From the IMG/VR virus record IMGVR_UViG_3300039122_000006: DNA of 6,544 nucleotides; one strand, 5' to 3'. A program made the position numbers and the translations under genes. Positions 1,522-6,544 of this stretch are shown here, one piece after another. Positions within the stretch are counted from its first letter, which is position 1. Each line of letters starts with the position of its first letter. Under the pieces are notes generated by a model that made no database searches, had not been told where the DNA came from, and worked only from the letters and a program-made list of their open reading frames with translations. Origin of the DNA: a virus. Lineage: Duplodnaviria; Heunggongvirae; Uroviricota; Caudoviricetes.

Positions 1522-2415
1522 ATGACGAATTTAAAAGCAGTTATTCCTGTAGCGGGTCTCGGGATGCATATGTTGCCTGCCACTAAGGCGATACCCAAAG
1601 AGATGCTACCAATCGTCGACAAGCCAATGATTCAGTACATTGTTGACGAGATTGTGGCTGCAGGGATCAAAGAAATCCTCCTGGTAACTCACGCGTCCAA
1701 GAACGCGGTCGAAAACCACTTCGACACCTCTTATGAGTTAGAATCACTCCTTGAGCAGCGCGTGAAGCGTCAACTGCTGGCGGAAGTACAGTCCATCTGT
1801 CCGCCGGGCGTGACCATTATGAACGTGCGTCAGGGCGAACCTTTAGGTTTAGGCCACTCCATTTTGTGTGCGCGACCTGCCATTGGTGACAACCCATTTG
1901 TCGTGGTACTGCCAGACGTTGTGATCGACGATGCCAGCGCCGACCCGCTACGTTACAACCTTGCTGCCATGATTGCACGTTTCAACGAAACGGGCCGCAG
2001 CCAGGTGCTGGCAAAACGTATGCCGGGTGACCTCTCTGAATACTCCGTCATCCAGACTAAAGAGCCGCTGGACCGTGAGGGTAAAGTCAGCCGCATTGTT
2101 GAATTTATCGAAAAACCGGATCAGCCGCAGACGCTGGACTCAGACATCATGGCCGTAGGTCGCTATGTGCTTTCTGCCGATATTTGGCCGGAACTGGAAC
2201 GTACTCAGCCTGGTGCATGGGGACGTATTCAGCTGACTGATGCTATTGCCGAGCTGGCGAAAAAACAATCCGTTGATGCAATGCTGATGACCGGCGACAG
2301 TTACGACTGCGGCAAAAAAATGGGCTATATGCAGGCGTTTGTGAAGTATGGCCTACGCAACCTGAAAGAAGGGGCGAAGTTCCGTAAAGGTATTGAGAAG
2401 CTGTTAAGCGAATAA
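1522..2415 (+). CDS. galF: GalF, UTP-glucose-1-phosphate uridylyltransferase paralogue (297 aa)
   Basis: ATG at 1522 gives [35 protein letters not shown]..., the sugar-nucleotidyltransferase N-terminal fold of GalU/GalF. The track's 1510 start is a GTG four codons upstream; ATG 1522 is preferred because AGG at 1508-1510 sits 11 nt before it and MTNLK is the GalF N-terminus as I recall it. Stop TAA 2413-2415. Located between wcaM and rmlB. Confidence 0.9.
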
Positions 2416-2489
2416 TGAAAATCTGACCGGATGTAACGGTTGATAAGAAAATTATAACGGCAGTGAAAATTCGCAGCAAAAGTAATTTG

Positions 2490-2519
2490 TTGCGAATCTT
2501 CCTGCCGTTGTTTTATATA
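2490..2519 (+). promoter_or_regulatory. Candidate sigma70 promoter of the rfb (O-antigen) operon
   Basis: TTGCGA (2490-2495), 17-nt spacer, TTATAT (2513-2518), or alternatively an 18-nt spacer with TATATA (2514-2519). It lies about 155-185 nt upstream of the JUMPstart, consistent with a long leader. Sequence inspection only; the transcription start is not mapped here. Confidence 0.4.
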
Positions 2520-2673
2520 AACCATCAGAATAACAACGAGTTAGCAGTAGGGTTTTATTCAAAGTTTTCCAGGATTTTCCTTGTTTCCAGAGCGGATTGG
2601 TAAGACAATTAGCGTTTGAATTTTTCGGGTTTAGCGCGAGTGGGTAACGCTCGTCACATCATAGGCATGCATG

Positions 2674-2712
2674 CAGTGCTCTGGTAGCTGTAAAGCCAGG
2701 GGCGGTAGCGTG
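2674..2712 (+). promoter_or_regulatory. JUMPstart element (39 nt) in the rfb leader
   Basis: CAGTGCTCTGGTAGCTGTAAAGCCAGGGGCGGTAGCGTG at 2674-2712 matches the JUMPstart sequence found upstream of polysaccharide gene clusters. GGTAGC occurs twice within it (2683-2688 and 2704-2709). Confidence 0.85.
2701..2712 (+). promoter_or_regulatory. ops (operon polarity suppressor) site, the RfaH recruitment and pause signal
   Basis: GGCGGTAGCGTG at 2701-2712 on the non-template strand, 75 nt upstream of the rmlB start; identical to the canonical 12-nt ops element with 8-nt core GGCGGTAG. Confidence 0.85.
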
Positions 2713-2787
2713 CATTAATACCTCTATTAATCAAACTGAGAGCCGCTTATTTCACAGCATGCTCTGAAGTAATATGGAATAAATTAA

Positions 2788-3873
2788 GTGAAAATACTTG
2801 TTACTGGTGGCGCAGGATTTATTGGTTCAGCTGTAGTTCGTCACATTATAAATAATACGCAGGATAGTGTTGTTAATGTCGATAAATTAACGTACGCCGG
2901 AAACCGGGAATCACTTGCTGATGTTTCTGATTCTGAACGCTATGTTTTTGAACATGCGGATATTTGCGATGCACCTGCAATGGCACGGATTTTTGCTCAG
3001 CATCAGCCGGATGCAGTGATGCACCTGGCTGCTGAAAGCCATGTTGACCGTTCAATTACAGGCCCTGCGGCATTTATTGAAACCAATATTGTTGGTACTT
3101 ATGTCCTTTTGGAAGCCGCTCGCAATTACTGGTCTGCTCTTGATAGCGACAAGAAAAATAGCTTCCGTTTTCATCATATTTCTACTGACGAAGTCTATGG
3201 TGATTTGCCTCATCCAGATGAAGTAAATAATACAGAAGAATTACCCTTATTTACTGAGACGACAGCTTACGCGCCAAGCAGCCCTTATTCCGCATCCAAA
3301 GCATCCAGCGATCATTTAGTCCGCGCGTGGAAACGTACATATGGTTTACCGACAATTGTGACTAATTGCTCGAACAACTATGGTCCTTATCATTTCCCGG
3401 AAAAGCTTATTCCACTGGTTATTCTTAATGCACTGGAAGGTAAGGCATTACCTATTTATGGCAAAGGAGATCAGATCCGCGACTGGTTGTATGTTGAAGA
3501 TCATGCGCGTGCGTTATATACCGTCGTAACCGAAGGTAAAGCGGGTGAAACTTATAACATTGGTGGGCACAACGAAAAGAAAAACATCGATGTAGTGCTC
3601 ACTATTTGTGATTTGCTGGATGAGATTGTACCGAAAGAGAAATCTTATCGTGAGCAAATCACTTATGTTGCTGATCGTCCGGGACACGATCGCCGCTATG
3701 CTATTGATGCTGAGAAGATTGGTCGCGCATTGGGATGGAAACCACAGGAAACGTTTGAGAGCGGGATTCGTAAAACGGTGGAATGGTACCTGTCCAATAC
3801 AAAATGGGTTGATAATGTGAAAAGTGGTGCCTATCAATCGTGGATTGAACAGAACTATGAGGGCCGCCAGTAA
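2788..3873 (+). CDS. rfbB: dTDP-glucose 4,6-dehydratase RmlB (361 aa), GTG start
   Basis: GTG at 2788-2790 gives [20 protein letters not shown]... with the Rossmann NAD-binding motif GGAGFIGS; the SDR catalytic motif YSASK and the conserved [10 protein letters not shown] are present. Stop TAA 3871-3873. Only a weak Shine-Dalgarno (GGA 2776-2778). Confidence 0.93.
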
Positions 3874-4772
3874 TGAATATCCTCCTTTTTGGCAAAACAG
3901 GGCAGGTAGGTTGGGAACTACAGCGTGCTCTGGCACCTTTGGGTAATTTGATTGCTTTTGATGTTCACTCTACTGATTATTGCGGTGATTTTAGTAATCC
4001 TGAAGGTGTAGCTGAAACCGTAAGAAGCATTCGGCCGGATATTATTGTCAATGCAGCCGCTCACACCGCAGTAGACAAAGCAGAATCAGAACCGGAGTTT
4101 GCACAATTAATTAACGCAACAAGTGTCGAAGCGATTGCGAAAGCAGCAAATGAAGTTGGAGCCTGGGTTATCCATTACTCGACTGATTACGTCTTCCCTG
4201 GAAATGGCGATATGCCATGGCTGGAGACGGATGCAACCGCACCACTAAATGTTTACGGTGAAACCAAGTTAGCCGGAGAAAAAGCGTTACAGGAATATTG
4301 CGCGAAGCATCTTATTTTCCGGACCAGCTGGGTCTATGCAGGAAAAGGAAATAACTTCGCCAAAACGATGTTACGTCTGGCAAAAGAGCGTGAAGAATTA
4401 GCGGTTATTAACGATCAGTTTGGTGCGCCAACAGGTGCTGAACTGCTGGCTGATTGTACAGCACATGCCATTCGTGTCGCACTGAATAAACCGGATGTCG
4501 CAGGCTTGTACCATTTGGTAGCCAGTGGTACCACAACCTGGTACGATTATGCTGCGCTGGTTTTTGAAGAGGCGCGCAAAGCAGGCATTCCCCTTGCACT
4601 CAACAAGCTCAACGCAGTACCAACAACAGCCTATCCTACACCAGCTCGTCGTCCACATAACTCTCGCCTTAATACAGAAAAATTTCAGCAGAACTTTGCG
4701 CTTGTCTTGCCTGACTGGCAGGTTGGCGTGAAACGAATGCTCAATGAATTATTTACGACTACAGCAATTTAA
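3873..4772 (+). CDS. rfbD: dTDP-4-dehydrorhamnose reductase RmlD (299 aa)
   Basis: ATG at 3873 overlaps the rmlB stop (TAATG). N-terminal GKTGQVGWEL is a GxxGxxG dinucleotide-binding motif; YGETK is the YxxxK catalytic motif. GAGG at 3859-3862 serves as an internal Shine-Dalgarno inside rmlB. Stop TAA 4770-4772. Confidence 0.93.
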   Translation: MNILLFGKTGQVGWELQRALAPLGNLIAFDVHSTDYCGDFSNPEGVAETVRSIRPDIIVNAAAHTAVDKAESEPEFAQLINATSVEAIAKAANEVGAWVIHYSTDYVFPGNGDMPWLETDATAPLNVYGETKLAGEKALQEYCAKHLIFRTSWVYAGKGNNFAKTMLRLAKEREELAVINDQFGAPTGAELLADCTAHAIRVALNKPDVAGLYHLVASGTTTWYDYAALVFEEARKAGIPLALNKLNAVPTTAYPTPARRPHNSRLNTEKFQQNFALVLPDWQVGVKRMLNELFTTTAI

Positions 4773-4781
4773 TAGTTTTTG

Positions 4782-4810
4782 CATCTTGTTCGTGATGGTG
4801 GAGCAAGATG
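4782..4810 (+). other. Predicted RNA stem-loop in the rmlD-rmlA intercistronic region
   Basis: 5' arm CATCTTGTTC (4782-4791), 9-nt loop GTGATGGTG (4792-4800), 3' arm GAGCAAGATG (4801-4810): a 10-bp stem with one G-U pair. Preceded by TTTTT (4776-4780) but not followed by a U-tract, so it is not a canonical intrinsic terminator. It ends 6 nt before the rmlA Shine-Dalgarno (AAGGAA 4817-4822). Confidence 0.4.
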
Positions 4811-4829
4811 AATTAAAAGGAATGATGAA

Positions 4830-5711
4830 ATGAAAATGCGTAAAGGTATTATTTTAGCGGGTGGTTCTGGTACACGTCTTTATCCTGTGACTATGGCTGT
4901 CAGTAAACAGCTATTACCTATTTATGATAAACCGATGATCTATTACCCGCTCTCTACACTGATGTTGGCGGGTATTCGCGATATTTTGATTATCAGTACA
5001 CCTCAGGATACTCCTCGTTTTCAACAATTGCTGGGTGACGGTAGCCAGTGGGGCCTGAATCTTCAGTACAAAGTGCAACCTAGCCCAGATGGCCTCGCGC
5101 AGGCATTTATCATCGGTGAAGAGTTTATTGGTGGTGATGATTGTGCTTTGGTTCTTGGTGATAATATCTTTTACGGTCACGATCTGCCGAAGCTAATGGA
5201 GGCCGCTGTTAACAAAGAAAGTGGTGCAACGGTATTTGCCTATCACGTTAATGATCCAGAACGCTATGGTGTCGTTGAGTTTGATAAAAACGGTACGGCA
5301 ATCAGTCTGGAAGAAAAACCGTTAGAACCAAAGAGTAATTACGCCGTTACAGGTCTGTACTTTTATGATAACGACGTGGTTCAGATGGCGAAAAACTTGA
5401 AGCCGTCTGCACGTGGTGAGTTAGAAATTACAGATATTAACCGTATTTATCTTGAGCAGGGACGTCTGTCTGTCGCGATGATGGGGCGTGGCTACGCGTG
5501 GCTGGACACGGGGACTCATCAGAGTCTGATAGAAGCAAGTAATTTTATTGCGACAATTGAAGAGCGCCAGGGATTGAAGGTTTCCTGTCCTGAAGAGATT
5601 GCATTTCGTAAAGGTTTTATTGATGTTGAGCAAGTAAGAAAATTAGCTGTACCACTAATAAAGAATAATTATGGGCAGTATCTTTATAAAATGACGAAGG
5701 ATTCAAATTAA
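4830..5711 (+). CDS. rfbA: Glucose-1-phosphate thymidylyltransferase RmlA (293 aa)
   Basis: ATG at 4830 gives [21 protein letters not shown]..., carrying the nucleotidyltransferase signature GGxGTRLxP. Shine-Dalgarno AAGGAA at 4817-4822. Stop TAA 5709-5711. Confidence 0.93.
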
Positions 5712-6268
5712 TGAATGTGATTAGAACTGAAATTGAAGATGTGCTAATTCTGGAGCCAAGAGTATTTGGTGATGATAGAGGTTTCTTTTATGAGAGCTTT
5801 AATCAATCAGCATTTGAACATATTCTAGGCTATCCGGTCAGCTTTGTTCAAGACAATCACTCACGTTCATCAAAAAATGTACTCAGAGGCCTTCACTTTC
5901 AACGCGGCGAGTACGCACAAGATAAACTTGTACGCTGCACTCATGGAGCAGTTTTTGATGTTGCTGTTGATATTCGACCCAATTCGGTATCCTTTGGTAA
6001 ATGGGTTGGTGTTCTGCTTTCAGCTGATAATAAGCAGCAGTTGTGGATACCAAAAGGGTTTGCTCATGGCTTTTTGGTTCTGTCTGATATCGCTGAATTT
6101 CAATATAAAACTACAAACTATTATCATCCTGAAAGCGATTGTGGAATATGTTGGAATGATGAACGCATTGCAATTGATTGGCCCCAAACATCAGGGTTAA
6201 TCCTTTCGCCAAAAGATGAAAGGCTCTTTACGTTAGATGAGCTTATCAGATTAAAATTAATTGCATGA
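5711..6268 (+). CDS. rfbC: dTDP-4-dehydrorhamnose 3,5-epimerase RmlC (185 aa)
   Basis: ATG at 5711 overlaps the rmlA stop (TAATG). Size and sequence ([30 protein letters not shown]...RGLHFQ...) fit the cupin-fold RmlC family. Shine-Dalgarno AGGA at 5698-5701. Stop TGA 6266-6268. Confidence 0.93.
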   Translation: MNVIRTEIEDVLILEPRVFGDDRGFFYESFNQSAFEHILGYPVSFVQDNHSRSSKNVLRGLHFQRGEYAQDKLVRCTHGAVFDVAVDIRPNSVSFGKWVGVLLSADNKQQLWIPKGFAHGFLVLSDIAEFQYKTTNYYHPESDCGICWNDERIAIDWPQTSGLILSPKDERLFTLDELIRLKLIA

Positions 6269-6544
6269 ATACGAATAAATTATCTTTAAGAAGAAACGTT
6301 ATATATCTGGCTGTCGTTCAAGGTAGCAATTATCTTTTACCATTGCTTACATTTCCATATCTTGTAAGAACACTTGGTCCTGAAAATTTCGGTATATTCG
6401 GTTTTTGCCAAGCGACTATGCTATATATGATAATGTTTGTTGAATATGGTTTCAATCTCACAGCAACTCAGAGTATTGCCAAAGCAGCAGATAGTAAAGA
6501 TAAAGTAACGTCTATTTTTTGGGCGGTGATATTTTCAAAAATAG
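6265..6544 (+). CDS. wzx: O-antigen flippase Wzx/RfbX, 3'-truncated at the window edge (93 codons visible)
   Basis: ATG at 6265-6267 overlaps the rmlC stop (ATGA). Frame 1 is open to the window end, so the gene is absent from the ORF track. Translation MNTNKLSLRRNVIYLAVVQGSNYLLPLLTFPYLVRTLGPENFGIFGFCQATMLYMIMFVEYGFNLTATQSIAKAADSKDKVTSIFWAVIFSKI is hydrophobic with TM-like segments, typical of a MOP-family polysaccharide transporter. AT-rich, as is usual for O-unit processing genes. From memory it resembles E. coli K-12 RfbX; not verified. Confidence 0.75.
   Translation, partial: MNTNKLSLRRNVIYLAVVQGSNYLLPLLTFPYLVRTLGPENFGIFGFCQATMLYMIMFVEYGFNLTATQSIAKAADSKDKVTSIFWAVIFSKI

Follow-up and report, generated by a model that had tools for sequence, protein, structure and literature searches.

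Composition steps, allele layers, and the cassette junction at the left end of the Escherichia coli K-12 O16 O-antigen locus

The window analyzed here, meaning the whole stretch of 6,544 nucleotides (nt) from IMG/VR record IMGVR_UViG_3300039122_000006, is the left end of the well-studied cluster of O-antigen (rfb) genes that Escherichia coli K-12 (serogroup O16) carries between galF and gnd. All 6,544 bases are 100% identical to K-12-type and O16:H48 genomes in a megablast search of complete E. coli genomes, and the window carries, all on the plus strand, wcaM, galF, the JUMPstart/ops leader, rmlB, rmlD, rmlA, rmlC, and the start of wzx. Base composition falls along this stretch in two steps, very probably because the locus is built of three layers, each with a history of its own, and exchanges its serogroup-specific DNA by homologous recombination. 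The three layers, a piecewise sharing of alleles across serogroups, and a crossover interval of 17 nt near the end of rmlD were all observed, and the crossover interval coincides with neither compositional step.

Base composition and codon usage

There is clearly a fall in guanine-plus-cytosine content (GC) from the galF side of the window into the rml genes and wzx, as an earlier note on this DNA had claimed from three samples of 60 nt, and it is real by full calculation of GC, of GC at third codon positions (GC3), and of the codon adaptation index (CAI). The same calculation excludes a uniform GC3 and CAI across galF and rmlBDAC. GC is 0.481 over positions 1-2415 and 0.423 over positions 2416-6544 (Fisher p = 6e-6). 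The best single GC3 break comes after about position 2380, 12 codons before the galF stop, with a GC3 of 0.563 before and 0.348 after; its log-likelihood ratio of 44.2, against a null maximum of 11.0, was reached by 0 of 500 permutations. Segmentation was carried out by optimal-partition dynamic programming on total GC and on GC3, and the GC3 model that was best by the Bayesian information criterion has three segments, 1-2379 at 0.563, 2380-5597 at 0.380, and 5598-6543 at 0.256, the last of them made up of the rmlA tail, rmlC, and wzx. By change-point analysis, the largest GC3 step is also the first and falls within the 3' end of galF (2380-2415). The second step, in the 3' end of rmlA (5590-5600), is seen in the segmentation of both GC and GC3 and in CAI; total GC goes there from 0.45 to 0.36 and sliding CAI from 0.41-0.48 to 0.31. 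If total GC alone is segmented, support for a single break is strongest at about 5590 (0.459 before, 0.358 after) and not at galF/rmlB. Binary segmentation of total GC with a permutation stop had returned only a break at about 5592, with the left part alternating high, low, and high, and this procedure was replaced.

Gene by gene, GC and GC3 are 0.459 and 0.546 in the part of wcaM within the window, about 0.514-0.517 and about 0.566-0.570 in galF, 0.436 and 0.356 in rmlB, 0.466 and 0.380 in rmlD, 0.427 and 0.381 in rmlA, and 0.387 and 0.280 in rmlC, and the part of wzx present has a GC of 0.33. At the first two codon positions the rml genes (0.53-0.58 and 0.36-0.43) are near galF (0.61 and 0.36), and the composition shift is therefore synonymous. 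CAI, calculated against a reference of 29 K-12 ribosomal protein, elongation factor, and rpoA genes, is 0.475 for galF, 0.424 for rmlB, 0.381 for rmlD, 0.403 for rmlA, 0.287 for rmlC, and 0.227 for wzx. The values for rmlB through rmlA are in the range of ordinary K-12 genes (0.33-0.54), and only the rmlA tail, rmlC, and wzx stand out.

That the trend is sampling noise, produced by three hand-picked samples, is a negligible prospect. The counts themselves are exact, with 36 G/C of 60 at 1801-1860, 22 of 60 at 3181-3240, and 20 of 60 at 6301-6360. Tiles of this size are noisy (standard deviation about 4.5 G/C), with overlapping ranges of 18-39 to the left of 2416 and 14-39 to the right, and the left side holds a trough as low as the rml genes; given that noise, the three samples are lucky illustrations of a real trend. 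Sampling noise is contradicted by the permutation and Fisher results above, and the same drop is found in all of the compared genomes. The trough makes the profile nonmonotonic: positions 731-1550, which take in the 3' half of wcaM, the spacer, and the first galF codons, have a GC of 0.401 and a GC3 of 0.443, and wcaM positions 1-730 have a GC of 0.519. The whole wcaM gene, at a GC of 0.47, is well under the other colanic acid genes at 0.54-0.55.

In the 26-kb K-12 context, annotated in RefSeq in the order galF, rfbBDAC, wzx, glf, wzy, wbbI, wbbJ, wbbK, wbbL::IS5, and gnd, GC forms a valley that extends from the end of galF to gnd. The cps genes are at 0.54-0.55 and gnd at 0.50, giving flanks of 0.50-0.55; the rml genes are at 0.39-0.47, and wzx through wbbL at 0.32-0.41. 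The drop at the galF stop is at the same place in every serogroup compared, namely in O7, O26, O45, O96, and O105 and in the neuB-containing and rmlB-rmlA-only clusters, and it is present also in clusters without rml genes. Because no compared serogroup lacks this step, it represents a species-wide, old edge of the O-antigen locus and not a K-12 or O16 event.

The O16 cassette junction and the rml mosaic

The window was aligned with nine E. coli loci: a second O16 lineage, O105, O26, O7 (strain B), O45, O96, a neuB-containing cluster, an rmlB-rmlA-only cluster, and an untyped cluster. The second O16 lineage is only 77 to 93% identical to K-12 from the galF-rmlB spacer through rmlD (2416-4745), with the last clustered mismatch at 4745, and shows 1 mismatch over the whole of 4746-6544. 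The maximum chi-square is 436-439, compared with a null maximum of 19.2 (0 of 300 permutations), and puts the break between 4727 and 4736. The second O16 lineage also shares a near-identical haplotype with O7/B over 2356-4762 (5 mismatches), which gives way to abrupt divergence from 4763 onward. There are thus three haplotypes, A-type rmlBD with O16 (K-12), B-type rmlBD with O16, and B-type rmlBD with O7, and the crossover is therefore bounded to 4746-4762, an interval of 17 nt within the last 27 nt of rmlD that we take as the left junction of the O16 cassette. The earlier note's expectation that rml genes often carry the junctions of serogroup switching is borne out by this example.

The near-identical O16 block continues for about 12 kb, from the 3' end of rmlD through gnd and ugd to a point between ugd and wzzB, with 4 mismatches. 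It corresponds to 12447-25593 of the K-12 locus (L012) in comparison with that of strain E12 (L013), and the flanks on either side differ by 5 to 13%. A block of this length with 4 differences, set between flanks that are 5 to 13% divergent, argues that the entire O16 cassette moved recently between distant backgrounds and took gnd and ugd with it. The second O16 lineage is common, with 129 genomes in the 95 to 99% identity band for 4300-6544. A literature search for an O16 block shared between K-12 and ST131-type strains found nothing specific. At the junction itself, GC is 0.491 over 4300-4745 and 0.418 over 4746-5200, a weak difference (z of about 2.2, post hoc) that no segmentation picks up.

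To the left of this junction, alleles are shared piecewise. All nine genomes match K-12 at 93 to 98% in wcaM and galF. Two deep haplotype forms separate from about 2401 onward, where bins of informative sites go from mixed to 55:7. The galF-rmlB spacer is correspondingly dimorphic in the species, with K-12 at about 95% identity to O105, O26, O45, and O96 and at 77% to O7/B and the second O16 lineage. Along the rml set, the closest match to K-12 then shifts, from O105/O26 in the 5' part of rmlB (98%) to O26 in rmlD (97%) and to the second O16 lineage in rmlA, rmlC, and wzx (99.9 to 100%). In the 5' half of rmlB, identity is 98% to O105, O26, and KY179 and 85% to O7 and the second O16 lineage; over 2788-3300 the corresponding figures are 96 to 100% for O105, O26, and KY179 versus 76 to 95% for O7, and a patch at 3301-3500 is nearer the O7 form. 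The O105/O26 comparison reveals a break at the rmlB/rmlD boundary (3867/3868). The 5' part of rmlD is 86% identical to O105 and the 3' part 97 to 99%; over 3873-4300 the identity is 94 to 99% to O26 and 86% to O105, and over 4400-4745 it is 96 to 99% to both. The whole K-12 rmlB-rmlD haplotype is at least 99% identical in only 349 genomes, the next among the matches listed being at 95.7%.

To the right of the junction, rmlA is 99.9% and rmlC 100% identical to the second O16 lineage. Identity to the other serogroups decays, from 91 to 97% before 5300 to 80 to 85% after it, then to 72 to 75% over 5600-5800 and 54 to 78% in rmlC, where the encoded protein shares only 51 to 66% amino acid identity with RmlC of O7, O26, O45, O105, and strain E600003. 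Relatives of the O16-type RmlC outside E. coli reach 58 to 69% amino acid identity and come from Oceanisphaera (the best, at 69%), Brenneria, Pseudomonas, Methylophilaceae, and Oxalobacteraceae. They are scattered among enterobacterial and nonenterobacterial groups, with no close enterobacterial source among the one genome per species that was searched. Insertion sequences are present in the rml region of some strains, namely ISVsa5 (IS4-like) in K-12 strains of the J53 type and IS1 in two genomes, one of which belongs to the second O16 lineage. Taken together, the changing affinities show the rml genes to be a recombination mosaic, and a uniform signal over the four genes, with no breakpoints, is excluded for the strains examined.

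The earlier note had supposed that the compositional break would indicate where the serotype-specific segment was joined. A join of the O16-specific segment to the K-12 chromosome at a composition break would fit with the coincidence of the first GC3 break (about 2380-2415) with the onset of the two deep haplotype forms, with the drop below about 75% in identity to other serogroups where the second break lies (about 5598), and with the weak local change in GC at the real junction. That junction, fixed by three haplotypes at 4746-4762, is nevertheless distant from both breaks: the first GC3 step is 2.3 kb to its left and the second 0.85 kb to its right. The low-GC DNA of 2416-4745 is shared piecewise, at 96 to 100%, with O26, O105, and other clusters, and the GC drop at the galF end is found in all serogroups compared. 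The supposition is thus very improbable as a general statement and is refuted for the recent O16 exchange. Low-GC rmlB-rmlD is not O16 specific, consisting of pieces 96 to 100% identical to other clusters, and the second step, which is about 850 nt inside the O16-specific block, marks a deeply diverged O16-specific core. The locus provides a worked example, in a reference strain, of GC composition alone mislocating recent cassette junctions, which haplotypes of the same serogroup in different backgrounds pin to a few nucleotides. O-antigen switching by recombination at galF-gnd drives serotype diversity, escape from immunity and phages, and the design of molecular serotyping.

Layer history and the origin of the low GC

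In the reading that we prefer, the first layer is a species-typical flank with a GC3 of about 0.56. The second is an rml layer common to all rhamnose-containing E. coli O clusters, with a GC3 of about 0.38, in which homologous recombination among serogroups maintains a patchwork. The third, from the rmlA tail on, is deeply divergent and O16 specific, with a GC3 of about 0.26 and low CAI. Cassettes at this locus are exchanged by homologous recombination, and the conserved flanks and the shared rml genes serve as anchors. Serogroup exchange involves crossovers in shared sequences; for O16, these are placed at 4746-4762, within the final 27 nt of rmlD, and some 12 kb further on, between ugd and wzzB. 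We infer that the low GC was inherited from a donor of lower GC and that the gradient arose afterward, as recombination with resident alleles raised similarity, and in part GC, away from the O-specific core. Of the horizontally exchanged cassette proposed in the earlier note, the exchange is sustained by the mosaic and by a junction within an rml gene; a foreign origin of the low-GC DNA, for which no donor was found, goes only as far as that inference.

Several points weigh against this account. The detailed alignment covers only 9-11 comparison genomes, all of them E. coli. The 5' half of rmlB (2788-3255) has a GC3 of 0.276 versus 0.400 in the rest of the second layer (Fisher p = 0.004, post hoc); AT richness in the shared layer thus peaks in the portion of rmlB next to the flank, which is opposite to a simple pattern of higher GC near the flank. 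The rml alleles, which are 12 to 25% apart, all have about equal GC and GC3 (GC3 of 0.33-0.44), and such equality among divergent alleles is as compatible with a stable equilibrium as with a still incomplete drift toward host GC. No donor of the O16-type rmlC was found among one genome per species, in a pattern-seeded search that can miss relatives. With regard to the flank-nearest part of rmlB, its GC3 is as low as that of rmlC and wzx, and the form-2 allele, present in O7 and the second O16 lineage, has a GC3 of 0.346 over the same codons.

These observations bear on a different explanation, in which the low GC and GC3 of the cluster would be actively maintained and would not be left over from a foreign source. 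The cause might be selection for AT-rich sequence or rare codons, for low expression or for dependence on RfaH/ops (possibly on H-NS), or it might be a local mutation bias. The nearly equal GC and GC3 of the divergent rml alleles in all strains, the constant location of the step (the galF stop) across serogroups, the failure of the donor search just described, and the low GC3 of the flank-nearest rmlB are all in keeping with maintenance, and the very low GC of wzx and wzy has been said to need explanation (PMC3715488, which has it that this "needs explanation"). Maintenance is opposed by the CAI of rmlB, rmlD, and rmlA (0.38-0.42), which is in the ordinary K-12 range and not especially rich in rare codons, and by the coincidence of GC steps with divergence layers (at about 5598), as different histories predict. 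Moreover, the GC of Salmonella rml genes can reach the genome average, and low GC has been argued to be unneeded for function (PMC3715488). We regard maintenance of low GC across the cluster as a live but less likely explanation than the three-layer history. A narrower form, in which the low synonymous GC of the shared rml layer is a maintained equilibrium and, as a related matter, the last approximately 27 nt of rmlD are a preferred crossover point for O cassettes, is more doubtful still. That candidate crossover point lies just before the AT-rich spacer between rmlD and rmlA and was used in the trio of K-12, the second O16 lineage, and O7.

Locus features and comparison with known systems

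The gene calls of the earlier note, and its placement of the window at the galF side of an O-antigen cluster, were right. The last gene of the colanic acid cluster, wcaM, occupies 1-1347 on the plus strand according to the RefSeq annotation of identical K-12 DNA, with its first 48 nt preceding the window. Next comes galF (1522-2415, plus strand), which is the conserved flank on the left side of the O-antigen locus and encodes the UTP-glucose-1-phosphate uridylyltransferase GalF (NCBIfam TIGR01105, 689 bits versus a cutoff of 659). The wcaM-galF spacer and the first approximately 180 nt of galF (1348-1700) are 97 to 100% identical in nine genomes, with both sides at 90 to 96%. In strain E600003 (L009), a wcaM segment at 701-1200 is only 72 to 84% identical to K-12 and the other strains, with flanks at 93 to 99%; this patch is an import into a colanic acid gene, and mosaicism thus reaches to the left of galF. 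Several genomes, O157:H7 among them, have an additional gene between wcaM and galF that divides the match to the window in two; it is annotated as N-acetyl-alpha-D-glucosaminyl-diphospho-undecaprenol 4-epimerase (gnu). A 93.6-kb plasmid, NZ_CP048012.1, carries a gene annotated as "sugar phosphate nucleotidyltransferase" that is 85% identical to galF positions 2045-2403; it is one of only two plasmid places among 4780.

The galF-rmlB spacer (2416-2787, plus strand; 372 nt with a GC of 0.403) holds the leader of the O-antigen operon. Its JUMPstart element (2674-2712, plus strand) matches Rfam RF01707 with 60 bits versus a gathering score of 35 (E = 2.7e-12) and is the sole Rfam element in the window. 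A motif search located the ops octamer GGCGGTAG inside it at 2701-2708 on the plus strand, 76 nt upstream of the operon's first gene. The 39-nt JUMPstart is 97 to 100% conserved in both forms of the spacer, and in clusters without rml genes homology to K-12 ends exactly at its 3' end (2709-2713, in many genomes). A consensus scan of 1300-2800 for promoters and terminators gave counts equal to the shuffled expectation and was uninformative.

The four rml genes and wzx follow on the plus strand. rmlB (rfbB, 2788-3873) encodes dTDP-glucose 4,6-dehydratase (NCBIfam NF007490, 792 bits versus 649, and TIGR01181, 509 versus 365), rmlD (rfbD, 3873-4772) encodes dTDP-4-dehydrorhamnose reductase (NF007440, 655 bits versus 308), rmlA (rfbA, 4830-5711) encodes glucose-1-phosphate thymidylyltransferase (NF012024, 667 bits versus 588), and rmlC (rfbC, 5711-6268), present as an O16-type allele, encodes dTDP-4-dehydrorhamnose 3,5-epimerase (TIGR01221, 290 bits versus 156). 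GalF, RfbB, RfbD, RfbA, and RfbC all exceed the NCBIfam equivalog or subfamily cutoffs, and all four enzymes of the dTDP-L-rhamnose pathway (RmlA, RmlB, RmlC, and RmlD) are predicted to be encoded in the window. The 5' end of wzx (rfbX, 6265-6544), the gene of the O16 O-unit flippase, runs off the right end of the window. Its 93-amino-acid fragment has no NCBIfam match, and the name comes from RefSeq on identical DNA ("O16 family O-antigen flippase"); wzy, which is outside the window, is an O16 family polymerase in the same annotation.

The K-12 rfb (O16) cluster is said to have been sequenced and analyzed in the 1990s, by Stevenson et al. in 1994 and by Yao and Valvano in 1994. It is the same DNA as the window, with the same gene order and with IS5 in wbbL further to the right, and there is no difference between the two. 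The JUMPstart/ops leader recruits RfaH for read-through of a long operon; compared with RF01707, the element in the window is a full-length match with the octamer and shows no structural difference, and RfaH would be predicted to act here. The K-12 O16 rfb cluster has been summarized, and its O16 unit is built with RmlABCD and the rhamnosyltransferase WbbL (PMC10578602). E. coli O-antigen clusters generally have GC below that of the genome, lowest in the processing and glycosyltransferase genes (Liu et al. 2019, PMC7685785), and the GC pattern of the window and its K-12 context agrees with that description.

The closest comparison is with the rmlBDAC set of Salmonella enterica O-antigen clusters, in which rmlB varies with subspecies and rmlC with the O antigen, recombination junctions occur within the rml genes, and blocks closer to the O-specific genes have lower GC (Reeves et al. 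2013, PMC3715488, citing Li & Reeves 2000). The window is alike in its rmlBDAC order, in flank-proximal genes shared across O types, in an O-specific rmlC and rmlA tail, in junctions inside rml, in lower GC toward the O-specific center, and in a divergence gradient that reaches 25 to 45% at the boundary. K-12 differs in that GC3 in the shared layer is lowest in the 5' half of rmlB (0.276), the gradient being nonmonotonic, and the E. coli window differs in that its flank-proximal part is dimorphic (77 to 85% between forms) and does not track subspecies. The findings in the window match the published rml gradients of GC and divergence; they are textbook and already known, and they add no new biology.

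A classical genomic island was considered and rejected: no integrase or tRNA was found in the 26-kb annotation or in the Rfam scan of the window, where no dedicated tRNA or direct-repeat scan was made, and the junctions are inside homologous genes. The window resembles such islands in having GC and codon usage that are atypical relative to its flanks, and it differs from them in that exchange takes place by homologous recombination in conserved flanks and shared rml genes.

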